Assembly (NCBI GenBank): GCA_020853615.1
Contig: JADYYO010000342.1
Span: 3,172-67,171, forward strand
DNA from: Thermomicrobiales bacterium
GTDB taxonomy: Bacteria > Chloroflexota > Chloroflexia > Thermomicrobiales > UBA6265
DNA length: 64,000 nt
Direction: 5' to 3'
The notes beneath the pieces were generated by a model, which was not told the origin of the DNA, did not search any database, and worked only from the letters and a program-made list of their open reading frames with translations. This document shows positions 20,893 through 56,815 of this stretch, piece by piece; the first letter of the stretch is position 1, and each line of letters starts with the position of its first letter. Both the position numbers and the translations under genes were made by a program.

Positions 20893-21464
20893 GGGTGGTG
20901 ACACTACGCGATCCACCGGGCGGGTTCTAGCGCCGTTCGTGCGGCGTTTTCGCGAGCCCCGATCGCGCACGGGCGCAGCTTTCGATCGCCACCAGGCCGA
21001 GACCGTTGTGGCGTTTGGGTGCCGCTCGAGCGCGCGGGCAACGCCAAACCGCCGCGCAACTGCGCTCGGGGCCCGGTTTGGCGTTAGCGGATCCTGTTGC
21101 CAAAACGCGGATCGCGGTGCCGTTCCGGAGCGATCGATGGCGCGCAAGCGCGATCTGCGGCCTGGTACCGCGGTGGCCCCGGTCCCGCGCTGGACCGGGC
21201 GCCGGATGGCCCCGGTGCGATGCGATGCCACACCAGCCTACAGTGTAGGTGTTGCGGCCCGCAACATGGTTAAAATCCCCCGCCAACCTGTCAGGTTCCC
21301 GGACACTTTCCGGTGGATTTTCACCACGTGCCCGGTCAAGTACCCGGAAACACTGCGCCTAGAACCCGGCATGCCGGATGCTTTGACCGGGAATGCGGCC
21401 GGAATCCTCCGGCGCCCCCGGCTGGACAACCGGGGCCCGTCAACCCTCACCGACAGGATACCCG
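20893..21464. promoter_or_regulatory. 572-bp divergent control region between late (-) and early (+) operons
   Basis: Lowest-GC stretch. TTTGGCG/CGCCAAA inverted repeats (21010-21108). Palindromes CCTACAgTGTAGG (21237-21249) and GTTGCGgccCGCAAC (21251-21265). TAAAAT box at 21271-21276. CCGGA-N4/5-TCCGG palindromes at 21299-21313 and 21399-21412. Confidence 0.6.
20901..20906 (-). promoter_or_regulatory. -10-like TAGTGT, 8 nt upstream of GTG 20892 (leaderless late-operon promoter candidate)
   Basis: Minus strand reads gatcgcgTAGTGTcaccacccGTG. Confidence 0.35.
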
Positions 21465-23012: not shown

Positions 23013-23091
23013 TCCGGTCGCGGGGTCCGGGCCATCGCCCGGGCCGCCTCCCGACGCTGCGAACCCTTCCCCTTCCCTCTGGAGCATCACC
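23013..23091 (+). repeat. intergenic repeat element copy A (hairpin + conserved 21-mer + SD)
   Basis: CCGGTCGCGGGG, hairpin CCGGGCcatcGCCCGG (23027-23042), core GCCTCCCGACGCTGCGAACCC (23046-23066), CT-rich tract, GGAG. Confidence 0.8.
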
Positions 23092-23460
23092 ATGATCACG
23101 TTCGATCTGTACTGGACCGAATCCGCGCGCGCCTGGCACGCGGTCATGCCCGGCGCGTGCGGAAGCGGCGCCACGCCGTGGGAAGCGCTGGCGGAAGCGT
23201 TGACCGTCTGGGATCGCCGCGGACGCCCGGAGGCCGATCCCGCGGACGTCCGGCGCGGCGGCGCGGACTGGGTGATCGATCACGTGGTCGACCGCGGCCC
23301 CGGTCACTTCTACCGCTACCACGTGCGCGGCGTGAACCTGAACCAGCGGCCCGGCGGGTACGCCCGGATCATCGACTGGGACGTTCCGAGCATCGCCGAC
23401 CCGCGTTACGAGATCCTCCCGGGCGCGTGGGGTTCCGCTTGCTGGAAGTGTGCCGCGTGA
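23092..23460 (+). CDS. hypothetical protein (122 aa)
   Basis: Full ORF MITFDLYWTESARAWHAV..., GGAG RBS. Confidence 0.7.
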   Translation: MITFDLYWTESARAWHAVMPGACGSGATPWEALAEALTVWDRRGRPEADPADVRRGGADWVIDHVVDRGPGHFYRYHVRGVNLNQRPGGYARIIDWDVPSIADPRYEILPGAWGSACWKCAA

Positions 23461-24034: not shown

Positions 24035-24127
24035 CCCGGTCGCGGGGCCGGTAGACGGTCCGGGGCCCAGTGCCCCGGCGCGCCTCCCGACGCTGCGAAC
24101 CCCTTCCCTTGCCCGAGGATCAGCACC
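24035..24127 (+). repeat. intergenic repeat element copy B
   Basis: CCGGTCGCGGGG, hairpin CCGGGGCccagtGCCCCGG (24060-24078), identical core GCCTCCCGACGCTGCGAACCC (24082-24102), GAGGA. Confidence 0.8.
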
Positions 24128-30119: not shown

Positions 30120-30590
30120 ATGGGTAATACCACCGCATTGATCTGTGGCCGCGGCACCGCACCGGCAGGCCTCCAAGCTGTCGTCGCGCAGGCAGACGCG
30201 CGCTGCGTCGTCATCGACCACCGCGATCCCGACGGGCAACGCAGCTGGTGGATCGATGGGCCGAATCGCGGTGAGCCGTTCGACGGCCAGTTGCAGCGCC
30301 GAATCTGCGCCGCCGCCAAGGCGCAGGGGATTGCCGGGTTCGTCGACGAGAGCGAGGCGACGGTGCCGGTCGCGCCCGCGCCGCGGCGGCGGGGCGGCGT
30401 CCACCGCCACCGCCCCAAGCACACCGACGAGCGCGTGTACATGGGCGAGCACCCCGCCGGCGCCGCCTACGCCAAGGTCCAGTCCGCCCAAGGTGGCGTC
30501 GCCATCCGCGACACGTGCAGCTGCGGCGCGACTCGCCTGACGCTCGCCAATGGCGCCCACGTCGCCCGCGGCAGTTGGACCTCGCCGTGA
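30120..30590 (+). CDS. hypothetical protein (156 aa)
   Basis: AAGGAG RBS; MGNTTALICGRGTAPAGLQAVV... Confidence 0.7.
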   Translation: MGNTTALICGRGTAPAGLQAVVAQADARCVVIDHRDPDGQRSWWIDGPNRGEPFDGQLQRRICAAAKAQGIAGFVDESEATVPVAPAPRRRGGVHRHRPKHTDERVYMGEHPAGAAYAKVQSAQGGVAIRDTCSCGATRLTLANGAHVARGSWTSP

Positions 30591-30799
30591 GATTCTACCG
30601 CGTTCACTTCAAGGCCTTCGACGTCGGATCGGCTGGCTTCGAGTTCTTCACCAATGAAGCCGCCGCCCGGAAGGCGCTGCGGCGCGACGCGCGGATGGAG
30701 CACGACCCGAGCTCGCTCGAGGTGATCGACGTCGAGCCTACCAAGGCGGGGATCTTGCGCGCCCTGCAACGCTACGCGAGCCACCCGGACAACGGGTAG
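30587..30799 (+). CDS. hypothetical small protein
   Basis: GTGA overlap; VRFYRVHFKAFDVGSAGFEFFTNEAAARKAL... Confidence 0.6.
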   Translation: MRFYRVHFKAFDVGSAGFEFFTNEAAARKALRRDARMEHDPSSLEVIDVEPTKAGILRALQRYASHPDNG

Positions 30800-30802
30800 A
30801 CT
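30797..30802 (+). promoter_or_regulatory. TAGACT box, 7 nt upstream of ATG 30810
   Basis: gGTAGACTGgcgcggATG; the TAG is also the stop of the upstream gene. Confidence 0.45.
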
Positions 30803-30809
30803 GGCGCGG

Positions 30810-30929
30810 ATGCTAACGGTCATGCGGGTTTGTTTCGGGATTGCCTTGTTGGCGTTCATCATCTACGCGACGCTGGCTGTGGTCGCAGGCGTCCGCCTGC
30901 TTTGGTGGCGCCTTCATCGCCGTCGGTAG
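30810..30929 (+). CDS. 39-aa single-TM protein (not in ORF track)
   Basis: MLTVMRVCFGIALLAFIIYATLAVVAGVRLLWWRLHRRR; sits just upstream of the lysis genes. Confidence 0.45.
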   Translation: MLTVMRVCFGIALLAFIIYATLAVVAGVRLLWWRLHRRR

Positions 30930-30945
30930 TGGTAGCGTCGCTGGC

Positions 30946-31191
30946 ATGGGATCGCTCTTGCGGCGCTGCGCGCCGTTCGTCGCCGTGCTGGCCTCGCTCC
31001 TGATCGCCTGCGCCACCCACGGCTGGACGCCGTGGTGCTGGGCCTGCGCGTGCGTCTGGACGGGCGACGCCCCGGCCACCCGGGCCAACGTCGACGGGGC
31101 GCTCTGCGCCTACCACGAGGCGCACGACGACGACGCGATCGTGCCGACGTGCCAGCGGTGCCTGATCGAGCGGGGGCTGGTCGCGATCTGA
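30946..31191 (+). CDS. small Cys-rich membrane/secreted protein
   Basis: MGSLLRRCAPFVAVLASLLIACATHGW...; the upstream part of tracked ORF 30841-31191 overlaps the 39-aa gene in another frame. Confidence 0.5.
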   Translation: MGSLLRRCAPFVAVLASLLIACATHGWTPWCWACACVWTGDAPATRANVDGALCAYHEAHDDDAIVPTCQRCLIERGLVAI

Positions 31192-31197
31192 TAGGAT
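31192..31197 (+). promoter_or_regulatory. TAGGAT box, 7 nt upstream of ATG 31205
   Basis: ctgaTAGGATggcggccATG. Confidence 0.4.
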
Positions 31198-31204
31198 GGC
31201 GGCC

Positions 31205-31771
31205 ATGCGTTTCTTCCGCCCGTCCCTGTTGTTCCTGACCCTCTGTTGCTTTGCGCTGCTCACGATGCTCTCGGTGCCGTGGGCGCTGGCCCAGGTCGCG
31301 CCCGCGACGCCGACCGCGTCCGACGGTGGGATGTTCTGGCAGGTCACCGACGGCGTGCTCAGGATCGTCGGGCCGGCGCTGGCGATCGTCCTGACCGCCC
31401 TGGCTGCGTTGCTGGTCCGGACGTTCCAGCAGAAGACGCACGCGACCGTCACCGATCGGCAGATGGCGATGATTGACACGTGGGTGGACGAGGCGGTGCG
31501 CTGGGTGGAGGAGCAGGTCCACAAGCGCGCCAAGGCCGGCGCCGGCAAGCCCGGCCCCGAGAGCAAGCTCGAGATGGGCGTGCGCTACGTGCTCGACCTG
31601 GTGGAAGCGGCTGGCATCCCCGGGTGGACCGCCCAGAAGGTCCAGCAGAAGATCGAGGCGGCGCTCCAGCACGAGCGGGTGGTGAACCGATCGCGCAGCT
31701 CGCTTGCGGAGGCGTTCGGCATGGGTCCGGACGCGATCAAGCCGCCGCCCAGCACCGGCGACGCGCCGTGA
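31205..31771 (+). CDS. holin, LL-H-like family
   Basis: N-terminal hydrophobic segments, then WVDEAVRWVEEQVHKRAKAGAGKPGPESKLEMGVRYVLDLVEAAGIP...KIEAAL, matching the LL-H holin pattern. Alternative ATG at 31196. Confidence 0.6.
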   Translation: MRFFRPSLLFLTLCCFALLTMLSVPWALAQVAPATPTASDGGMFWQVTDGVLRIVGPALAIVLTALAALLVRTFQQKTHATVTDRQMAMIDTWVDEAVRWVEEQVHKRAKAGAGKPGPESKLEMGVRYVLDLVEAAGIPGWTAQKVQQKIEAALQHERVVNRSRSSLAEAFGMGPDAIKPPPSTGDAP

Positions 31772-32280
31772 GCATCGCGATCGGCCTCGCCGCGCTGGCG
31801 GTGATCGGGAGCCTGGTGGCGCTCGCGTTCTACGCGCTGCGCCAGGCGTTCAAGCGCACCGACCAGGCGCTCGAGGGGTGGGTGTCGGCGCTCAAGCACG
31901 CCGACCGCGCGCTCGCGCTCCAGGACCGCGTTGACGTGCTGGGGCGGGAGGTGGAGAGTCGAGATCATGCCCTGGCCGACGTCAACCGCGAGATCACCCA
32001 GCACCGAAGCGCCCTCGAAGTCGTCCGCCGCCAGCGCGACGCCGCGCGCGACGGGCTCCAGGATATCCTCGCGCGCGTCACCGCCGGCGGCGATCTCGCC
32101 GGGCCGGCGGCTGCGCCTCGCGTGGCTCAGCTGGTGCGCGCTCAGCTTGACCGCCTGCAAGCTCTGGGGGGGCGGAGCGCCAGCGGCACGTTGCCCGGAG
32201 CCCCTGCCCCCGCTGCCGGCGCCGCCGCCGACGCTCCAGGTAGTGGAGCGGACGTGCGCGGGCCCGGACCTGCCGGCTGA
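31768..32280 (+). CDS. i-spanin-like protein (N-terminal TM + coiled coil)
   Basis: GTGA overlap; VSIAIGLAALAVIGSLVALAFYAL followed by a R/E/D/L-rich coiled coil. Confidence 0.6.
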   Translation: MSIAIGLAALAVIGSLVALAFYALRQAFKRTDQALEGWVSALKHADRALALQDRVDVLGREVESRDHALADVNREITQHRSALEVVRRQRDAARDGLQDILARVTAGGDLAGPAAAPRVAQLVRAQLDRLQALGGRSASGTLPGAPAPAAGAAADAPGSGADVRGPGPAG

Positions 32281-32461
32281 CGCGCTGGCCTTCCTGGCGC
32301 GCGACTGGCCCGAGCCCGATGCCCAGGGCGGCACCTATCTCTCCCCGCTCGCGACGATCAAGTTCGTGACCGCGCTGACCGCGCTGAACGACTACATCGA
32401 GGACGACCATGCCCAGTGCCACGCGCCGGCGCCCGCCCCAGCCGCAGCCCCAGACCCGTAG
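31967..32461 (+). CDS. o-spanin-like lipoprotein overlapping the i-spanin gene in another frame (start unresolved)
   Basis: RLRLAWLSWCALSLTAC (lipobox Cys codon 32156-32158) then Pro-rich CPEPLPPLPAPPP. No ATG/GTG lies close upstream (CTG at 32111; first ATG at 31967). Confidence 0.4.
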   Translation: MPWPTSTARSPSTEAPSKSSAASATPRATGSRISSRASPPAAISPGRRLRLAWLSWCALSLTACKLWGGGAPAARCPEPLPPLPAPPPTLQVVERTCAGPDLPADALAFLARDWPEPDAQGGTYLSPLATIKFVTALTALNDYIEDDHAQCHAPAPAPAAAPDP

Positions 32462-32999
32462 GTGCCGGTTCGAGGGCCGCCACGGCCGCTGCACCAGCAT
32501 CGCCACCAGCGACGGTTTTTGCGGTCGCCATCTCGAGGAGATCGCCGCCGACGTCGCGACGCCGACCCTGGGCGAGTCGATCCTGAACCTGTTTGCCGGC
32601 ACGCCGCGCCAGCAGCGCAAGGCCCAGGAGCACGTCGTGGCGGGGCTCGGCCAGTTCTTCCAGCAGACGATCGATCGGCGCTTCCCGCCGCCCGGCGCGC
32701 CGCCGGCTGGTGGCCAGGTCGGGCCCGGCCCGGCGGGGCCGGCGCGGCCACGCGTCTCGCCCGAGGCGATCGAGCGGCGCAAGCGGCAGATCGCGGCGCG
32801 CGCGACGATCGGGTTCGAGCCCGACGAGCCGCTGACCGTCGACGCGATCCGCAAGCGCCGCCATGAGCTCATGCGGGTCTGGCACACCGACAAGGCGGCC
32901 GGCGCGCCGGACCCGACGCGCGAGAAGATGGTCCGCCAGATCAACGCCGCCACCGAGTTCCTGCTGGCGCACGTCGCGCCCCCTCCGCCCCAACCGTAG
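32409..32999 (+). CDS. J-domain-like protein (HTD instead of HPD) with N-terminal Cys/His cluster
   Basis: LTVDAIRKRRHELMRVWHTDKAAG...REKMVRQINAATEFLL; N-terminal CRFEGRHGRCTSIATSDGFCGRH. Confidence 0.65.
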   Translation: MPSATRRRPPQPQPQTRRCRFEGRHGRCTSIATSDGFCGRHLEEIAADVATPTLGESILNLFAGTPRQQRKAQEHVVAGLGQFFQQTIDRRFPPPGAPPAGGQVGPGPAGPARPRVSPEAIERRKRQIAARATIGFEPDEPLTVDAIRKRRHELMRVWHTDKAAGAPDPTREKMVRQINAATEFLLAHVAPPPPQP

Positions 33000-33017
33000 C
33001 GGCGCCCCCCGGGGCGG

Positions 33018-33026
33018 TGGTAGCAT
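33018..33026 (+). promoter_or_regulatory. extended -10-like TGGTAGCAT upstream of the SLT gene
   Basis: Identical 9-mer to 40208-40216. Confidence 0.3.
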
Positions 33027-33058
33027 GACCCCCAGCTTTCCCAGGCTGGGGCCCCGCG

Positions 33059-33679
33059 TTGCTGCCCACGACCTACGATCCGCTGTTCCGCCGCTACGCG
33101 GGTTCGATCCCGGTCGCCTACCTGCGCGCGCTCACGCAGCGCGAGAGCGGCTTCAACCCCCGCGCCAACGCCGGCAAGGCGGCCGCGCAGGGCCTGCTGC
33201 AGATCACGACCGTGGCGCGCGACGCCTTCAACCGCGCCCAGGGCACGAGCTACACGCGGGACGACACGCTCGATCCCGAGGTGAACATCCGGATCGCGAC
33301 CAACCTGCTCCAGCGCATCATCGCCAGCTACCGCGCGCACCCGAGCGCCAACATGCGCGAGGACTGGAGCAACCCGGCGTTCGTCCAACTGCTGACCGCC
33401 GGCTGGAACGCCGGCTACTCCGAGGGCGGCGGCGTCGGCAAGGTCGCGCGCTACCTCGAGCAGCGCAACCTGCCGGTCACGCCCGCCACGGTCTACCAGC
33501 ACGCCGGCGCGGCCGGCGCGGTCGCGTTCTTGTCCGATCCGGCCCGGGCCCGCTGGCACCAGTCGGTGGCCGAGCTCTACCTGGCGCAGCCCGATCGCGC
33601 CTCCGCCGCCACGCCGGCGCTGGGCCTGCTGGCCATGGCGCTGCTCGCGTGGGGCGGCTACACCCTGCTGACGAGGTGA
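33059..33679 (+). CDS. lytic transglycosylase (SLT domain) with C-terminal TM anchor; endolysin candidate
   Basis: LTQRESGFNPRANAGKAAAQGLLQIT (catalytic-Glu motif ES-GLLQI); TTG start; ends LGLLAMALLAWGGYTLLTR. Confidence 0.75.
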   Translation: MLPTTYDPLFRRYAGSIPVAYLRALTQRESGFNPRANAGKAAAQGLLQITTVARDAFNRAQGTSYTRDDTLDPEVNIRIATNLLQRIIASYRAHPSANMREDWSNPAFVQLLTAGWNAGYSEGGGVGKVARYLEQRNLPVTPATVYQHAGAAGAVAFLSDPARARWHQSVAELYLAQPDRASAATPALGLLAMALLAWGGYTLLTR

Positions 33680-33683
33680 TCCG

Positions 33684-34310
33684 ATGGCCCCCAGCCTGCG
33701 CAACCTGACCCTGGGGCTGCCCCAGCAATTCGTGGAGACGGTCGCCGACCGGCTCCGCCAGACCGGCGGCCGGATGTCGCCCGAGGTGGCGCGCGCGCTG
33801 CCGAACGGGCCTGCCGGCGCCGACGCCAAGGATCTGCAGCGGTGGCGGACCGAGATGTCGGTCATCTTCACGACGCAGCTCGGCGTCTCGCAGCAGTTCT
33901 ACCAGGCCGAGCAGTGGCAGATCGTCCAGGTCATGCTCGAGACCGCGGGCCCGGTCGCGATCTCGACGCGGACCGACGTGCTGCCGGTGCTGTCGGGCAA
34001 GGGCCGGCTGCTCACGACGAACATCAACTACAAGTTCGTGCTGCCGCGGGGCGCGCGCCTCTACTACGCCGCCGAGTCGGTCAACCGGATCGCGTTCTCG
34101 GTGGAGCCGATCCCGTGGCTCGAGCAGCTCGCGATGGAGATCCGCCGCGTCAGCGCGGGCGGACTCGCGGGCGCGAAGGAGATCGTCAAGGCCGTCCTGC
34201 GCGGCCAGCCGGCGCGCGACGAGCTGCCCGCGATGCCCGAGCCGCCGCCGCCGGCGAGCGCGCCGCCGCCGCTCCGCCAGCTCAAGCGCCTCCCCAACTT
34301 CCGCGGATAG
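33684..34310 (+). CDS. hypothetical beta-rich protein (208 aa)
   Basis: Full ORF; WQIVQVMLETAGPVAISTRTDVLPVL...YKFVLPRGARLYYAAESVNRIAFSVEP. Confidence 0.7.
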   Translation: MAPSLRNLTLGLPQQFVETVADRLRQTGGRMSPEVARALPNGPAGADAKDLQRWRTEMSVIFTTQLGVSQQFYQAEQWQIVQVMLETAGPVAISTRTDVLPVLSGKGRLLTTNINYKFVLPRGARLYYAAESVNRIAFSVEPIPWLEQLAMEIRRVSAGGLAGAKEIVKAVLRGQPARDELPAMPEPPPPASAPPPLRQLKRLPNFRG

Positions 34311-34319
34311 CGAGCCCCC

Positions 34320-35237
34320 ATGACCCTGCCCAACCAGCCCAGCTCCGTCGACGCGGTCCTCGCCAACCAGGACTTCTTCCGGATCTTCCAGCCCGTCACG
34401 AGCCCCGGGGACATCTGGGAGATCGACAACGGCGCGCACGCGGTCTACATCGGCCCCAACAGCGATCTCGCGAAGGTCCGGCTGGCCTACTACCAGCGCG
34501 CGGCCGCGCTGAACCAGCAGGAGATCGCCGACGTCTCGGTCAACGGCCCGTTCGCGACGCGGATCGACGCGCTCAACGTCACGCCCTACCAGGGCCTGGG
34601 CGGCCAGAAGGGGCGGATCCTCGCCTACCCCGACGACATCGTGGATCTGGCCTACGAGCGCCCGACGTCGGCGCTCTCGGTGCCGCAGCGGCGCTACAAC
34701 GTCGTCCCGCGGATCGACCTGATCACCGCGCTCAAGCAGATCCCGGACATCCCGCAGGTCCGCGCCGATCGGACGCTCCGCTTCCCGCGGGTGCCGTTCC
34801 AGAACCTGGGCGAGACCGACACCAACGGCTCGACCGACATCGTGATTCCGATCTACGGCCGCCGCATGGTGACCGTCCAGATCGTCACGCCGGCGCTGGT
34901 CGCGCACGAGACCTCGTTCTTCCTGGCCGCGCTGCAGCCGGGCACGACGCAGCCGTTCGCCAAGTTCCTGGGCTCGGTGCTCAAGCCAGCGATCGCGGTC
35001 CAGGACACCGACTCCGTCGTCTACCGCGCCTCCGACCAGGTCAGCCAGATCACCGGCACTGGCACCACCGACGCGCCGTCGACGTTCGACTACACGCAGG
35101 AGTCGCAGCCGCTGCCGAGCGCCAAGGGCCAGGCCGACCTGCTGATCATCAACGTGCGCCCGGCGTACGGCGAGACCCCGCCGCCCGGCTACTCGATGAT
35201 CTCGCTGTTCATCCAGGTCTCCGACCGTGAGGCGTAG
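34320..35237 (+). CDS. hypothetical beta-rich virion-like protein (305 aa)
   Basis: Full ORF with normal composition, ends ADLLIINVRPAYGETPPPGYSMISLFIQVSDREA. Confidence 0.75.
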   Translation: MTLPNQPSSVDAVLANQDFFRIFQPVTSPGDIWEIDNGAHAVYIGPNSDLAKVRLAYYQRAAALNQQEIADVSVNGPFATRIDALNVTPYQGLGGQKGRILAYPDDIVDLAYERPTSALSVPQRRYNVVPRIDLITALKQIPDIPQVRADRTLRFPRVPFQNLGETDTNGSTDIVIPIYGRRMVTVQIVTPALVAHETSFFLAALQPGTTQPFAKFLGSVLKPAIAVQDTDSVVYRASDQVSQITGTGTTDAPSTFDYTQESQPLPSAKGQADLLIINVRPAYGETPPPGYSMISLFIQVSDREA

Positions 35238-35621
35238 ATGACGACCCCCGCGACCACCATCCAAGAGGCGATCGACCTGGCCGCCGACAACATCGCGGAG
35301 CTGTCCTACGACGGCGTCGTGTCGCTGGCCAGCCGGATGAACGACTGGGTCGACGGCATGTTCGTCGCCCCGGCCGGGATCTACATCGACGTCGACAGCA
35401 CGTCCCAGCGCCGGGTGCTGGACTGGTTCGGGCCGACGCGCCGGGCGCAGGCCGAGATCGAGGGCCCGAACCCCGGCGACAGCGGGCTGATCGGCACGTC
35501 GGCGGTGATCGACGCCGTCACGCGCGCGCTCTGCGCGGTGCGCGACTCGGCGCTGGCCGGCGCGATCACGGCGACGCAGGAGACCGACACGGTGACGCTG
35601 TTCAACACGGCGTGGACCTGA
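35238..35621 (+). CDS. hypothetical protein (127 aa)
   Basis: TAGATG junction; MTTPATTIQEAIDLAADNIAEL... Confidence 0.7.
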   Translation: MTTPATTIQEAIDLAADNIAELSYDGVVSLASRMNDWVDGMFVAPAGIYIDVDSTSQRRVLDWFGPTRRAQAEIEGPNPGDSGLIGTSAVIDAVTRALCAVRDSALAGAITATQETDTVTLFNTAWT

Positions 35622-35623
35622 CG

Positions 35624-35878
35624 ATGAAGATCGTCGACGCCCGCTCGGGCAAGGCCGTCCAGATCGGCCAGACGATCAAGTACCCGTGGACCCCGGAGTT
35701 CCAACCCCACGGGCCAGAGTGGATCAGGCTGGTCGACGTCCGTCCCGGCATCTGGAGCGCGAGCGCCATCATCCAGCGCGGCAACGGGGTGCGGTCCGAG
35801 ACCCTCGAGATCCCGCTGGTCGTGCGCTGGACGCACCCGAGCTACTTTCTGCAGCACGTCGCGTTTCTGCCGACGTAG
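35624..35878 (+). CDS. hypothetical small protein (84 aa)
   Basis: MKIVDARSGKAVQIGQTIKYPWTPEF... Confidence 0.65.
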   Translation: MKIVDARSGKAVQIGQTIKYPWTPEFQPHGPEWIRLVDVRPGIWSASAIIQRGNGVRSETLEIPLVVRWTHPSYFLQHVAFLPT

Positions 35879-35881
35879 ACT
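35876..35881 (+). promoter_or_regulatory. TAGACT box, 7 nt upstream of ATG 35889
   Basis: cGTAGACTGcggcgcATG; the TAG is the stop of the upstream gene. Confidence 0.45.
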
Positions 35882-35888
35882 GCGGCGC

Positions 35889-36452
35889 ATGCGCTCTCCC
35901 ACGAACCTCGAACGCCGCCCGATCAACCGCTGGGACTCCTTCGCCACCGACGAGTTTCGCCACCGCGCCTACCTGTTCGGGAGCGGGAACATCGGACGCA
36001 TGGACCACTGCAACATGGACGTGCCGGGCTCGCTGTCGCCGGACCTGACGACGGTGATCGAGCACGTCTACGCGCGGACCGAGGCGGCCCCGCGCGATCT
36101 GGTGGCGACCCTCGATCTCCATCGGTGGGCCAGCCACGCGGTCGTCCGCTTGCTCGTCGGCGACAAGCCGCGCCGCGTGTTCGCCCTGGCGGATCTGCTG
36201 CAGGAACGTCCGTGGGAGCCGGCGGCCATCGCGATCGCGCGCGAGATGGAGGCCGGCGAGCCCGCGGCGGCAGGAGTGGTCGCGGCCTACAAGGAGCGTC
36301 TCGGACAGCGGCGCGGCGACGGGCCGCCGGGGGTGGAGGTGCCGGTGCGCCAGTACGTCGCCGTCGACATCGATGCTCCGGACTGGCCGCCCGGGCCGCC
36401 GACCCGGATCTGGATCCATCTCGAGGGCTTCCAGGTCTGGCCGCAGTGCTGA
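35889..36452 (+). CDS. hypothetical protein (187 aa)
   Basis: Full ORF MRSPTNLERRPINRWDSFATDEFRHRAYLFG... Confidence 0.7.
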   Translation: MRSPTNLERRPINRWDSFATDEFRHRAYLFGSGNIGRMDHCNMDVPGSLSPDLTTVIEHVYARTEAAPRDLVATLDLHRWASHAVVRLLVGDKPRRVFALADLLQERPWEPAAIAIAREMEAGEPAAAGVVAAYKERLGQRRGDGPPGVEVPVRQYVAVDIDAPDWPPGPPTRIWIHLEGFQVWPQC

Positions 36453-36643
36453 TCGGCTTCGACCGCACGAGCGGCGAGATCCTGATCGACCGTCACGGTC
36501 GCCGCATCACCGATGTTGGTCTCGCGGCGTTGTGGTTGCGCTGGGACGCTGGCACGCCACCCGAGACGCGGGTTGCCGAGACGCTCGTGATCGACAACTA
36601 CACCCGGGGGCGCGACGACGGGATCCCGAGTGCCTTCGGGTAA
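36446..36643 (+). CDS. hypothetical small protein (65 aa)
   Basis: GTG overlapping the upstream stop (GTGCTGA); VLIGFDRTSGEILIDRHGRRITDVGLAALW... Confidence 0.5.
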   Translation: MLIGFDRTSGEILIDRHGRRITDVGLAALWLRWDAGTPPETRVAETLVIDNYTRGRDDGIPSAFG

Positions 36644-36653
36644 GGGCTACGTG

Positions 36654-36659
36654 TAGACT
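36654..36659 (+). promoter_or_regulatory. TAGACT box, 7 nt upstream of ATG 36667
   Basis: gtGTAGACTGcggcccATG. Confidence 0.45.
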
Positions 36660-36666
36660 GCGGCCC

Positions 36667-37687
36667 ATGAAGCTCTCCGTCATCACTCCGACCTGTCGCT
36701 CCAACCCGCGGTTCGCGGAGATGGCGGCGACGCTCCTGCAGTCGTTCATGCGCGCGCCGGCGACGACGCTGCTCGAGTGGCTCATCGTCGACGAGGTGCT
36801 CTGGCGCGATCCGCCCGAGGAGCGCCTGGCGCCGATCACCGAGGCGCTCGCGACACTGCCGCTCGAGGTGCGCCAGCGGATCCACGTCGATCACTTCGCG
36901 CCGCCGCCCGGCCAGCACCGCGGCCCCGACATCGCCGACCCGCTGCCCGCCCACAACACCGCGCGCAACGCCGGCCTGGCCGCGGTCGCGCCGGACAGCC
37001 GCTACGTCATCATCCTGTCGGACTGCTCGCTCGTCACGTCCGACTGGGTCACCGTCGCGTGCGAGCTGGCGCAGCAGCACGTGGGCTGGAAGTGCCGGCT
37101 GGCGCAGGTCCACGACATGGTCGTGCCCCACCACCAGCCGCTCCGCTACCAGGACGCGTGGGACACGTTCCACCCGGTCGCAGCGACGACGGTGGCCGGG
37201 CCGTGCTGGGGCGCGCCGCTCGACGCGTTCCTCGCGGTGGGCGGCTTCGACGCCGACTACGACGGCGAGGACGACTACTACGACCACGAGATCCTGCTGC
37301 GCCTCAGCCGCGTCGGGATCCAGTTCCACACCACCAAGCGCGCCGGCGTCGTCCGGCTCCGCCGCACCCTCGTCAAGCACGAGGTGACCAACCACCGCGA
37401 GGTGCTCCATGCGAAGCGCAACGTCGCCTTCTACCGCGCCCTGGCCGCCGACCGCGATCGTCTCCTGCCGGGTGGCAACGCCACCGGAGGTGCCCAGCTT
37501 GGCCGAGGCGCCCCCCACCAGCCGCCGCGTCCCGCTCCGGCTCCGGCTCCGGCTCGCGTGGCGCCGCCTGTGGCGGCCGGAACGCGTCGGGTTCCGGGCG
37601 CTGGCGTTCCGCCGGCGCGACCTGCACCGGCGCGTCCTGCGGCTGCACCTGCTGCAGACCACCGGCTCGCGGTGGGATCCGCCGTGA
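36667..37687 (+). CDS. family-2 (GT-A) glycosyltransferase; reading frame switches +1 near 37450-37500
   Basis: MKLSVITPTCRSNPRF..., GGFDADYDGEDDYYDHEILLRL. GC3 collapses in the starting frame after ~37455 while the +1 frame has high GC3 and stops at 37685-37687. Confidence 0.6.
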
Positions 37688-39309
37688 CGGCCGCGCCGCC
37701 GGTCGCGCGCAGGAACGATCCCCTGACGCCGGCGGCGCACGCGAGCGAGATCTGCGGCTACGTCCACGACGGCACCGCCTGCAAGCTGGTCACCGGCCAC
37801 GCCGGCGCGCACGTCTTCGGGACGCCCGAGTGGGTGTTCGGCGTCGACCCGGCGACGTACGTGCCGCGGTACCGGGAGCTCGAGGCCGCGATGGCCGAGC
37901 GCCGCCTCGCGATCGCCGATCCCCAGACGCCGGCCGAGCGGATCGAGCCGCTCAAGGCGGAGATCGCGGGGCTGGCCGACGAGCAGTCCGATCTCTGGTA
38001 TGCGCTCAGCCCGGCGCAGAAGGACGAGGTGGACCCCGAGGGCGCGCAGGCGCGCGCCTACGCCCGCGAGGCGGGCTCGATCCCGCAGGAGGCCCCGCTG
38101 TCGCTCCACGAGCGCGCCCAGCAGGCGAAGGCGGCCAAGGCGGCCCGGGTGGCGGCCGAGCAGGCCGGGACCGCGCCACCGCTGGCGGACGACGAGCGCT
38201 GCCCGTACACGCCCACCCAGGGGAGCTACGCCGGCATGCGTTGCCGCCACCGCGCGCGCCACGGCGGGCCGCACGCCTACATCGGCCAGACGCCGGCGGC
38301 GCCGGCGGCGCCCGCGGCCAAGAAGCCCGCGCCCACCGTGCCCCGCACGCCGCCGCAGCCCACCGCGGCGATCCAGCAGACGATGACCGCGCTGGCGGAC
38401 CACGGCCAGGTCGTGGTCGGCGAGCTCGCGCTCCTGCCCAAGAACCGCGCCCGGATCGCGGTGGCGATGGCGGTCGCGCTCCGCCAAGACGGGCTGCTCA
38501 CGCTCGAGGCCGACTACCGGCAGTTGCTGACCGAGATCGCCGCGGTCGAGTTCGGGCCGGCCGGCAACGCGCGGTCGGCTCTCGACGAGACGCCCGAGGG
38601 CTGGCTCGCCCAGCGGATGTCGACCTACGCCGGCGCCGAGCTCGACGCCGACCTGGCCGGCGTGGCCGAGATCTGCCAGATGCTCCCGGCGATCCCGGTC
38701 TCGCAGGTCGCGTTCCGCGCGCTCCACGACCACGCGCTGCAGGTCGACCGCTGGCGGGCCGCGAGCGGGCTGTCGCCCCGGGCCGAGATGAAGCTGATCG
38801 ATCGCGCCTACGCCTGCGCCGCCGACCACGGGATCGCGCTGACGCCGCCCGACGACTTTGGGGACTACGCGCTCGACGAGCTGGCCGAGCTCGAGCGCGC
38901 CAACGCCGAGGTGGGCCAGGACGAGATCGCGTCGGTCGAGCCGCTCTCGGCGGCGGCCGCCGCGTGGGAGGCGATGGGCCCGGTCCGGGCGATCGTCCAC
39001 ACCGACGCCTACCTGCAGGCGATCGCGCACGCCAACGGCATCACCGTCGACGAGGCGCAGCGCCGGCGGGACCAGCCGGTGACGCCCGCCGATCAGCCGC
39101 ACGACGACTACGCGACGATCGTGCGCTGGGTGGCGCCTGCCGACGTCACCGGGTTGCTGGCGAAGAACTGGGTGCTGGTCAACGAGGACGACCAGGATCA
39201 GCTCCGCACCTGCTGGCCGCTGCCGGAGCCCGAGTGGCCCGAGGAGCGCCAGCTGGCGTGGGTGCCCGACGCCGACGCGGTCGCGATGCTGACGCTCGAT
39301 CCGCTGTAG
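37684..39309 (+). CDS. hypothetical protein (541 aa) with two Cys/His motifs
   Basis: GTG 37684 in a GTGA overlap with the +1-frame stop; CGYVHDGTACKLVTGHAGAHVF and CPYTPTQGSYAGMRCRHRARHGGPHAY; GC3 high again from here. Confidence 0.6.
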   Translation: MTAAPPVARRNDPLTPAAHASEICGYVHDGTACKLVTGHAGAHVFGTPEWVFGVDPATYVPRYRELEAAMAERRLAIADPQTPAERIEPLKAEIAGLADEQSDLWYALSPAQKDEVDPEGAQARAYAREAGSIPQEAPLSLHERAQQAKAAKAARVAAEQAGTAPPLADDERCPYTPTQGSYAGMRCRHRARHGGPHAYIGQTPAAPAAPAAKKPAPTVPRTPPQPTAAIQQTMTALADHGQVVVGELALLPKNRARIAVAMAVALRQDGLLTLEADYRQLLTEIAAVEFGPAGNARSALDETPEGWLAQRMSTYAGAELDADLAGVAEICQMLPAIPVSQVAFRALHDHALQVDRWRAASGLSPRAEMKLIDRAYACAADHGIALTPPDDFGDYALDELAELERANAEVGQDEIASVEPLSAAAAAWEAMGPVRAIVHTDAYLQAIAHANGITVDEAQRRRDQPVTPADQPHDDYATIVRWVAPADVTGLLAKNWVLVNEDDQDQLRTCWPLPEPEWPEERQLAWVPDADAVAMLTLDPL

Positions 39310-39312
39310 ACT
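39307..39312 (+). promoter_or_regulatory. TAGACT box, 7 nt upstream of ATG 39320
   Basis: ctGTAGACTGgagcgcATG; the TAG is the stop of the upstream gene. Confidence 0.45.
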
Positions 39313-39319
39313 GGAGCGC

Positions 39320-39937
39320 ATGGCGCTCGACCTCGGCTTCCGGAAGCCCGTCCCCGACAACGTCTTTGCCGAGGTGATGAGCGGGTGGGGCCGGCCGCGC
39401 GCCGGCGGCAAGGAGCACTCGGGGCTCGACATCCTCCTGCCGATCGGCAAGCCGGTCGTGGCGATGGCGGACGGGCAGGTGATCCGCGTCCAGGCCACCG
39501 ACGACGGCGGCTCGGCCGGCATCTTCCTCGTGATCCGCCACCCGTCGGGGATCTCGAGCCGCTACATCCACCTGGGCCGGGCCGACGTGCGGCTCAACCA
39601 GCAGGTCGCCAAGGGCCAGGTGATCGGCGCGTCGGGCAACACCGCGATCAAGAACAGCCCGCCGCACATGCACGTCGACATCAAGGTGCCGGCGGCGCTC
39701 TTGCCGCAGATCGAGGCGGCCGCCGGCAAGCCGCCGGGCGGGTGGCACCCGCTGGTCAACCCCTGGGGCTACGGCGTGCCGGCCGAGCCGTGGATCCCGG
39801 TCGACCGCTACTCGGCCCGGACGCTCGAGGACGCGCAGCGCAACGGGATCCCGCTCTACCGGGGCGGGGCCGCGAAGGCGGTCGGGCTCGCCGCGCTGCT
39901 GCTCTTGGGCTGGGGGCTCTACCGCCTGACGCGCTAG
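39320..39937 (+). CDS. M23/LytM metallopeptidase with C-terminal TM anchor
   Basis: HSGLDILLPIGKPVVAMADGQV, RYIHLGRADVRLNQQVAKGQVIGASGNT, PPHMHVDI; ends AVGLAALLLLGWGLYRLTR. Confidence 0.8.
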   Translation: MALDLGFRKPVPDNVFAEVMSGWGRPRAGGKEHSGLDILLPIGKPVVAMADGQVIRVQATDDGGSAGIFLVIRHPSGISSRYIHLGRADVRLNQQVAKGQVIGASGNTAIKNSPPHMHVDIKVPAALLPQIEAAAGKPPGGWHPLVNPWGYGVPAEPWIPVDRYSARTLEDAQRNGIPLYRGGAAKAVGLAALLLLGWGLYRLTR

Positions 39938-40206: not shown

Positions 40207-40216
40207 ATGGTAGCAT
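40207..40216. promoter_or_regulatory. overlapping divergent -10 boxes in a 23-bp intergenic gap
   Basis: Plus strand TAGCAT (40211-40216) + 7 nt + ATG 40224. Minus strand TACCAT (40212-40207) + 6 nt + ATG 40200. Confidence 0.45.
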
Positions 40217-42118: not shown

Positions 42119-42149
42119 GGCCGCGAGCGTACCCCGGGCCGGCCCGGCG

Positions 42150-43048: not shown

Positions 43049-43120
43049 CGGGCCATCATCCTACCACCACGTGGCGATTGCTGTCAGGTCGCACCTCGGG
43101 CCCGGGTACGATGCGCCCGC
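43049..43120. promoter_or_regulatory. 72-bp divergent promoter region (candidate genetic switch)
   Basis: Minus strand CTGACA-N18-TAGGAT (43063-43058) + 9 nt + ATG 43048. Plus strand TACGAT (43107-43112) + 8 nt + ATG 43121. Palindromes CCACGTGG (43067-43074) and CGGGCCCG. Confidence 0.45.
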
Positions 43121-52621: not shown

Positions 52622-52726
52622 GCGGGTACGATAAGCCCGCTCGGTTGACGGTCAATGGCGAGGCTGCATATACTTCCGAACACCTACGGGCGCGACCTCC
52701 CTCAGCGCACAAGTCGGAGCCCCAGC
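52622..52726. promoter_or_regulatory. back-to-back divergent promoters sharing a palindromic -35
   Basis: Plus strand TTGACG (52645-52650)-N18-TATACT (52669-52674), then GGAG + 7 nt + ATG 52727. Minus strand TTGACC-N16-TATCGT (52633-52628) + 6 nt + ATG 52621. Core TTGACgGTCAA. Confidence 0.6.
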
Positions 52727-56544: not shown

Positions 56545-56576
56545 GACGCAGCCGGGGGGCGGGATCTGCCCGCGCG

Positions 56577-56623
56577 CGACAAACAGTTGACATGCGGCGG
56601 ACGTTTGTCGTAGAGGTGGGGGC
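56577..56623 (+). promoter_or_regulatory. sigma70-type promoter with flanking operator-like inverted repeat, leaderless GTG
   Basis: CGACAAAC (56577-56584) ag TTGACA (56587-56592) ... GTTTGTCG (56603-56610) TAGAGG (56611-56616) + 7 nt + GTG 56624; 18-nt spacer. Confidence 0.55.
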
Positions 56624-56815
56624 GTGCGTTGGGAACACATCGACGGCGTGGGCACGGTCTGCTTCCAGCCCGACGGATCGGTCTCGATCCTCGTGGCGGA
56701 CGGCGACGGGCTGCCCGAGACGGTCACGGACGCCATCGCGGCGACCGGGCTGTCCGCGGATGCGTTGATCCAGCGTATGCTGGATGCCGCCCATGCCCCC
56801 GACCCGCAGCGGACC
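56624..56815 (+). CDS. N-terminal segment of a split/frameshifted gene (continues in frame of 56784-57125?)
   Basis: VRWEHIDGVGTVCFQPDGSVSILVADGDGLPETVTDAIAATGLSADALIQRMLDAA is protein-like. Beyond ~56850 this frame loses GC3 and has no stop until 57241. Confidence 0.35.

Follow-up and report, generated by a model that had tools for sequence, protein, structure and literature searches.

Four identical octamers ahead of start codons

The stretch analysed here (the window) comprises 64,000 nucleotides (nt) of contig JADYYO010000342.1 from assembly GCA_020853615.1, listed under a Thermomicrobiales bacterium, and is an uncultured, temperate-phage-like element of high GC content. The GC content of the window is 72%, its genes are densely packed, and an identical 8-mer, GTAGACTG, stands ahead of four start codons on the plus strand. 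Genes were mapped by codon-position GC content, with a third-position value (GC3) of ~0.9 or higher and GC1 > GC2. Those recognisable from Pfam and PHROG were genes for a holin (PF09682), an M23 peptidase, an SLT transglycosylase, a GDSL hydrolase, a 3D/PG_binding lysin, a tyrosine integrase, HTH_31, DnaA_N, and ParB_N proteins, and two DNA methyltransferases.

The four sites lie where a first-pass annotation had placed them, and the arrangement that it described was recovered in full: every copy of GTAGACTG is followed by a spacer of exactly 6 nt and then an ATG, leaving 7 nt between the embedded hexamer TAGACT and the start codon (Table 1). Likewise, the TAG of the motif is the stop codon of an upstream, GC3-supported open reading frame (ORF) at three of the four sites, and at the remaining one the hexamer, at 36654, is located downstream of a TAA stop. 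The four copies of the 8-mer compare with an expectation of 0.40, a count of four being reached in none of 100 shuffles; the bare hexamer was not over-represented in the window (4 observed vs. 3.3 expected), and it is the placement, strand, and flanks that are non-random. In ~140 kb of related sequence, considered on both strands, all nine TAGACT hexamers precede a real ORF, 6–8 nt ahead of its ATG, so that 13 of 13 copies in the window and its relatives are located 6–8 nt before real ORF starts. No sequence upstream of the box is common to the four sites. A scan for the sigma-70 consensus (–35 TTGACA and –10 TATAAT, 16–18 bp apart) returned nothing at the four sites and a single match in 29.5–45 kb, at 43087–43058, and no terminators were found near the four sites. 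Site 4 has a GGAG only 3 nt from the ATG, which is not conserved (CGAG in the related locus L002). Among the four downstream genes, the 39-amino-acid (aa) ORF is the least certain, with a GC3 of only 0.75.

Table 1. Positions in the window of the four GTAGACTG boxes, the genes that follow them, and other TANNNT boxes.
Feature	Position	Strand	Context
Box 1, GTAGACTG	30796..30803	+	TAG is the stop of ORF 30515–30799; 6 nt to ATG 30810; identical site in L001; region missing from L002
39-aa ORF, single-pass membrane peptide (MLTVMRVCFGIALLAFIIYATLAVVAGVRLLWWRLHRRR)	30810..30929	+	Downstream of box 1; 100% conserved in L001
Box 2, GTAGACTG	35875..35882	+	TAG is the stop of the 88-aa ORF 35612–35878; 6 nt to ATG 35889; L001 homology breakpoint at 35883–35892
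187-aa gene (w187)	35889..36452	+	Downstream of box 2
Box 3, GTAGACTG	36653..36660	+	In a 23-nt intergenic gap, not a stop; 6 nt to ATG 36667; homology with L001, L002, and L006 from 36649/36650
880-aa gene, no assigned function	36667..39309	+	N-terminus MKLSVITPTCR conserved from residue 1
Box 4, GTAGACTG	39306..39313	+	TAG is the stop of the 880-aa gene; 6 nt to ATG 39320
M23 peptidase gene	39320..39937	+	Pfam PF01551, E = 6.8e-22
TAGCGT box	30933..30938	+	7 nt before ATG 30946 of the 81-aa gene (w81) preceding the holin gene; box kept in 5/6 orthologs
TAGGAT box	31192..31197	+	Overlaps the first holin ATG (31196); 7 nt before the in-frame ATG 31205; holin by PF09682
Face-to-face overlapping boxes, ATGGTAGCAT	40207..40216	both	TACCAT (–) 6 nt before ATG 40200; TAGCAT (+) 7 nt before ATG 40224; 23-bp divergent gap
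TACGCT box	42126..42131	–	7 nt before ATG 42118 of the 3D/PG_binding lysin gene; box kept in 6/7 orthologs
Divergent box pair, 72-bp gap	43058..43112	both	TAGGAT (–) 9 nt before ATG 43048, with CTGACA as –35; TACGAT (+) 8 nt before ATG 43121
Overlapping boxes, TACGATA	52627..52633	both	TATCGT (–) 6 nt before ATG 52621; TACGAT (+) 22 nt before ATG 52655
TAGTGT box	20901..20906	–	8 nt before GTG 20892, head of the 20-kb leftward block
TAGCAT box within TGGTAGCAT	33021..33026	+	32 nt before TTG 33059 of the SLT gene

A wider TANNNT signal at gene starts

The 8-mer is the commonest variant of a wider TANNNT signal, which was surveyed at 264 starts called in the same way in the window and six related loci (L001, L002, L004, L006, L007, and L008). 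The end of a TANNNT hexamer lay 6 nt before the start codon in 15 cases, 7 nt in 20, 8 nt in six, and 9 nt in five, with only 0–3 cases at every other offset between 0 and 54 nt, and the peak at 6–7 nt held 35 of the 46 boxes in the 6–9 nt range. Elsewhere the hexamer is scarce: both strands of the window contain 61 copies vs. 155.5 ± 12 expected from dinucleotide shuffles, a 2.5-fold depletion consistent with selection against spurious –10-only promoters. Thirteen of these 61 are located 6–9 nt before a start and ~8 more are intergenic, 20–90 nt before a start. The arrangement TAGNNT-N7-ATG occurs seven times in the window vs. 0.43 expected.

Boxed and unboxed starts differ in several further respects. 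A Shine-Dalgarno tetramer was absent from 9 of 11 boxed starts vs. 36 of 81 unboxed ones (p = 0.025); ATG was used at 40 of 44 boxed vs. 127 of 209 unboxed starts (p = 8e-5), the boxed remainder being four GTG and no TTG; and a pyrimidine occupied position –1 at 33 of 44 vs. 112 of 209 (p = 0.011). Divergent gaps of 23–572 bp, where a promoter is required, lie in front of six of the 11 boxed starts. Across 43 unique boxes, comprising 17 different hexamers, T1, A2, and T6 are fixed and the base directly before the box is G in 33, but no –35 consensus emerged from the 43-site matrix.

Several related boxes had been proposed from the window alone in the first-pass annotation, together with the statement that none of the starts behind them has a Shine-Dalgarno sequence. 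The boxes at 31192, 40211, and 43107 on the plus strand and at 40207–40212, 52628–52633, 43058–43063, and 20901–20906 on the minus strand were all confirmed. The proposed TAGAGG box at 56611 had to be dropped, as it is not a TANNNT hexamer and its GAGG, 9 nt before GTG 56624, is an ordinary Shine-Dalgarno arrangement; this start and site 4, with its GGAG, depart from that statement. The gene structure at 56545–56783 is itself uncertain. The 9-mer TGGTAGCAT, said to occur twice, was found at 33018 and 40208, the first copy lying ahead of the SLT gene.

The position of the hexamer, 6–9 nt before the start and hence overlapping the Shine-Dalgarno window, together with the mutual exclusivity of box and Shine-Dalgarno sequence, could suggest a non-canonical ribosome-binding element that acts on the mRNA through rRNA pairing or a protein. 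We consider this extremely unlikely: 17 hexamers that share only T1, A2, and T6 are incompatible with one rRNA pairing and have exactly the pattern of sigma region 2, the four sites have no shared or unusually stable RNA fold (z from –1.25 to +1.18), and the window contains no Rfam family.

Conservation of boxes and turnover of cassettes among relatives

The box of the 880-aa gene was present in all nine lineages compared (42–99% protein identity), always 6–9 nt before the start, as TAGACT in six lineages, TAGAAT in two, and TAGTAT in one. The sequence cgtgTAGACTgcggcSc-ATG precedes this start in the window, L001, L002, L006, and L009, and cgTAGACTccgagctc-ATG precedes it in L103 (65% identity), and of the more distant relatives L004 and L007 have TAGAAT, at 8 and 6 nt, respectively, and L008 has TAGTAT at 9 nt; further upstream of the box the orthologous sequences are unalignable. 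Box 4 is represented by GTAGACTC in L002 and by TAAGCT in L006, where the stop has changed from TAG to TAA and TANNNT is kept. Across orthologous sites T1, A2, and T6 are constant, with drift in N3–N5 and in the spacer.

No sequence match to the 880-aa protein was found in Pfam, PHROG, or PDB, and the protein appears to be restricted to this phage clade. Its N-terminal region of ~270 aa is strongly conserved in homologs P0001–P0010 (MKLSVITPTCR..., TVAGPCWG, DGEDDYYDHE) and resembles a glycosyltransferase-type start; a Pro/Ala-rich linker and conserved Cys/His clusters are also present.

In other genes, too, the presence of a box was family-specific and conserved. The w187 gene has a box 6–7 nt before its ATG in 5/5 cases despite altered strand and genome position, with the hexamers TATCGT (L001), TACCAT (L004), and TACCGT and TAGACT (L008), and retention was also high for w62 (6/7) and w67 (3/3), as for the 3D lysin and w81 (Table 1) and for w115 (5/6). 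No box was found in the SLT (0/8), w305 (0/7), GDSL (0/6), integrase (0/7), w208 (0/6), or w127 (0/7) families, and the holin likewise was never boxed (0 of 4–8 in each family). In w208 and w127, GAGG is kept in place of the box, and relatives without a box at M23, w81, or w115 have a Shine-Dalgarno sequence there instead.

These comparisons bear on termination-reinitiation, which the first-pass annotation had offered as an alternative and in which the motif would be an mRNA-level coupling element, the ribosome stopping at its TAG and restarting without a Shine-Dalgarno sequence at the ATG 10 nt on. The shared stop at three of the four window sites, the identical 10-nt gap from stop to start, and the lack of a proper Shine-Dalgarno sequence at the downstream cistrons fit such coupling, some of which may well occur additionally where an upstream promoter gives a read-through transcript. 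That the motif functions in this way is nevertheless quite unlikely and was not supported: site 3 and orthologous boxes in L004 and elsewhere follow an unrelated stop, only 7 of the 43 unique boxes overlap an upstream stop at all, and the same type of box is found at divergent gaps, where there is no upstream cistron. Moreover, T6 is invariant although a stop codon does not need it, the spacing from box to ATG ranges over 6–9 nt, and the box follows the downstream gene where the upstream neighbour differs or is absent, w187 being boxed on other strands and at other positions. TAG is used as the stop by 35 of the 92 genes of the window, which is high for a genome of 72% GC.

A further alternative is that the full GTAGACTG, with N6 and ATG, is a phage-specific promoter or regulator site read by a phage factor (a late activator, sigma-like protein, or repressor), which would give its genes a common timing distinct from that of the TAGCAT/TACCAT boxes of the regulatory region. 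The exact 8-mer recurs at four sites inside 8.5 kb, TAGACT is kept at the 880-aa gene in the six lineages noted above, including the diverged L103, and in a temperate phage the timing of the lysis genes has to be controlled. Even so, we hold this to be unlikely, since Pfam and PHROG scans of ~70 proteins recognised neither a sigma factor nor an RNA polymerase nor any obvious late regulator, the flanking G's vary in relatives (GTAGACTC in L002, cgTAGACTc in L103), and nothing is shared upstream of the box. The distant orthologous sites, being TAGAAT, TAGTAT, and TAAGCT, place the requirement on TANNNT rather than on the 8-mer.

The edges of the homology blocks shared with L001, L002, and L006 fall at 30930/40, 35883–35892, 36649/50, and 40206/08, none of them more than ~5 nt from a box. 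Because the blocks begin at boxes, the box belongs with the downstream gene as a “box + gene” module. In L001, an extra 146-aa gene is fitted precisely into the space from one box-ATG junction to the next. No relative has the same set of genes as the window from the 127-aa gene (w127) to the 880-aa gene, this interval encoding 88 + 187 + 65 aa in the window (35622–36652), 84 + 146 + 203 aa in L001 (8611–9999), no gene in L002 (9892–9987), and 63 aa in L006 (5935–6272). The region 35622–36652 is a hot spot at which cassettes turn over, with boxes on its borders.

Such a pattern would also be expected if the box-spacer-ATG unit (TAGACTGCGGCSCATG) were mainly a recombination joint, that is, microhomology for cassette exchange that was repeated by copy-paste recombination and not by selection for expression. 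The positions of the block edges, the inserted gene of L001, and the variable gene content are in keeping with this idea, as is the identity of the 16-mer at site 2 of the window with the site of the 880-aa gene in L001. However, mosaic joints survive selection at gene boundaries anyway, and the box fills most of each 10–23-nt gap; recombination also gives no account of the TANNNT peak, the bias to ATG and to a pyrimidine at –1, the depletion elsewhere, or the differing hexamers at orthologous sites. We regard it as very unlikely to be the principal function and as compatible with a promoter as a side effect, not as its replacement.

Probable leaderless initiation, other boxes, and known systems

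Both in geometry and in the pattern of their invariant positions, the boxes agree with the signature published for leaderless genes, and GTAGACTG is therefore read as containing a –10 hexamer. In our assessment the GTAGACTG sites are most probably minimal –10 promoter boxes that give rise to leaderless mRNAs. The first-pass annotation had leaned the same way, and this reading is favoured by the positional peak, the tendency of boxed starts to lack Shine-Dalgarno sequences, their preference for ATG and for a pyrimidine at –1, the scarcity of TANNNT elsewhere in the window, the conservation of T1, A2, and T6, and the linkage of box and gene. TAGACT, as a member of the TANNNT class, would be recognised by host RNA polymerase with the primary sigma factor and without a –35 element; with the hexamer ending 7 nt before the ATG, transcription would begin on the A of the start codon or no more than a base away from it, and the resulting mRNA, having neither a 5′ leader nor a Shine-Dalgarno sequence, would be translated via the leaderless pathway. 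The four copies would then be internal promoters of a tightly packed rightward block of lysis and accessory genes, each heading a module of box and gene. Gaps of 10–23 nt would force the AT-rich hexamer onto the very end of the upstream gene, where its TAG would then serve as the stop. The overlap with stop codons accordingly looks like genome compaction, and is best read as such because the gaps are this short and a TAG cannot be read through in frame.

Several points weigh against this interpretation. Geometry, statistics, conservation, and the linkage of box to downstream gene are direct observations, but that RNA polymerase initiates at the boxes, with which sigma factor, and when, is something we infer from them. 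Bare host-type promoters before the lysis genes of an integrase-carrying phage leave silencing in the lysogen unexplained, and neither an operator nor a regulator was identified. That four 8-mers among ~13 boxes are identical goes beyond the uniformity that TANNNT alone predicts and is only partly explained; perhaps the 8-mer is a preferred strong variant, or the copies share ancestry through recombination. The starts of unboxed genes come from a GC3-based heuristic caller and may contain errors, and the relatives, being the syntenic contexts of homologs of the 880-aa protein, are phylogenetically non-independent loci. Finally, the suggested Actinobacteria-type host is based on GC content, the signature itself, and a similarity of the M23 peptidase that leans to actinophage proteins but is weak and affected by database bias.

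A more elaborate proposal, which strikes us as unlikely, is that GTAGACTG-N6-ATG is a portable joint of stop, promoter, and start that ends one gene, launches a leaderless transcript for the next, and provides microhomology for cassette swaps within the phage clade; it might be read by a phage-encoded factor that sets the timing of the lysis and accessory genes, and the host might lie outside the established leaderless phyla.

Beyond the four sites, boxes also occur in other arrangements in the window. The holin gene has two in-frame ATGs three codons apart (M-A-A-M), a sequence conserved in L001, L002, and L006, and read-through and leaderless transcripts could yield two holin isoforms, reminiscent of dual-start holin/antiholin pairs. 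Ahead of the SLT gene, a hairpin shared by the same three relatives, CCCCAGC-tttccca-GCTGGGG (–19.2 kcal/mol, z = –1.6), lies in the leader, and 33018–33058 is likely a leadered promoter with a structured 5′ untranslated region and no Shine-Dalgarno sequence. In the 572-bp divergent gap between two large gene blocks, a palindrome, CCTACAGTGTAGG, with three overlapping TANNNT hexamers lies at 21235–21276, a candidate regulatory or origin region; TAAAAT at 21271, near the palindrome, is the sole AT-rich box of the window. Two near-identical stretches of ~45 nt (cctcccgacgctgcgaaccc(c)ttcc...) precede the genes starting at 23092 and 24128, at 23047–23091 and 24083–24127, respectively. The leftward block of 20 kb (78–20892, minus strand) consists of 27 co-directional genes with essentially no Pfam or PHROG match; it has a single leaderless-type box, at its head, and none adjacent to starts inside. 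Pfam and PHROG recognised no terminase, portal, capsid, or tail protein in it, so that if it is the virion module, it is very divergent.

Megablast gave no nucleotide match between the 28–46 kb region and cultured phages, tblastn gave no match to the 3D lysin, a 638-aa protein, or the holin in phages and plasmids, and a single-protein scan of viral contigs found no cultured relative. The sole match in a scan of genome contigs was a 2.4-kb contig binned in a “Planctomycetota” metagenome-assembled genome, and no tRNA genes were found in the window. As an anchor for metagenome searches the pattern ATGAAGCTNKCNGTNMTSAC proved too generic, only one fetched locus (L103) being a true relative. A search with the 3D/PG_binding lysin returned 146 homologs, mostly on contigs of 40–96 kb. 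One homolog (41% identity) is carried by a 293-kb contig, L010 (JGI 3300072490), which was considered as a possible host chromosome and rejected as such; with its RNA ligase, RNase H, NUDIX, PTH2, and IMPDH-like genes it looks like a jumbo phage, so that members of the lysin family occur in phages of widely differing type.

Leaderless mRNAs from –10-only promoters are known from Actinobacteria and Deinococcus-Thermus. In Mycobacterium tuberculosis, TANNNT without a –35 element lies 7–12 bp upstream of 73% of primary transcription start sites (Cortes et al. 2013, PMC3898074), and leaderless genes, recognisable by a TANNNT ~12 bp ahead of the point where translation starts, account for >20% of the genes of Actinobacteria and Deinococcus-Thermus, the middle positions being uninformative in high-GC groups (Zheng et al. 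2011, PMC3160421). The boxes described here resemble such SigA/HrdB-type promoters in their uninformative middle, in the lack of a –35 consensus, and in a first T ~12–13 nt before the start, and the genes behind them resemble leaderless genes in having no Shine-Dalgarno sequence, a purine at +1, and a pyrimidine at –1, and in switching between leaderless and Shine-Dalgarno-led orthologs. They differ in belonging to an uncultured phage, in the fusion of several boxes to the preceding stop, and in a preference for G at the third hexamer position (TAGNNT) and just upstream. Among phages, leaderless SigA-like promoters have been predicted in Cluster O mycobacteriophages, including divergent pairs (PL1/PR2/PL2, PMC4351075), and for P90 of the mycobacteriophage Adephagia (PMC11373665); unlike these, which have a recognisable –35 and AT-rich intergenic regions, the sites of the window have no –35, occupy gaps of 10–23 nt, and reuse one 8-mer four times.

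Two other phage elements invite comparison. The start-associated sequence (SAS) of Cluster K mycobacteriophages is a 13-bp element 3–9 bp before the start that takes in, and reaches beyond, the site of ribosome binding (Pope et al. 2011, as summarised in PMC11373665); according to the same source, it is thought to act on translation, the promoter being separate and located in an extended element (ESAS) of ~50 bp. Like the SAS as outlined there, GTAGACTG is a short identical motif repeated close upstream of starts in a subset of genes. Identity with the SAS in this description was rejected, as conservation extends over at most 8 bp, there is no core resembling a ribosome-binding site, the flanks are not conserved, and the motif fits a –10 hexamer. 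The morons of lambdoid phages, a concept of Juhala and Hendrix, are genes with their own promoter inserted between conserved genes; in the classical form they combine a full promoter with a terminator, and expression in the lysogen is frequent. The box + gene units are moron-like in being present or absent between conserved neighbours, with homology starting at the promoter box, and unlike classical morons in that no terminators were found.

Most likely, then, these genes follow a mode of leaderless expression already known from Actinobacteria-type hosts and from phages of such hosts, with no new mechanism involved, and what is new is the uncultured phage clade that carries it; current understanding of transcription and translation is unchanged by these findings. 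The arrangement would be one of extreme compaction, an AT-rich promoter element being placed on the preceding stop codon in a genome of 72% GC from which stray TANNNT hexamers have been purged elsewhere. If the interpretation is true, the lysis and accessory region would be a chain of short, independently promoted units and the 20-kb leftward block one long operon, and roughly one gene in six of the clade would have to be annotated with a leaderless start directly after a TANNNT box. The signature could then help to assign uncultured high-GC phages to leaderless-proficient hosts.

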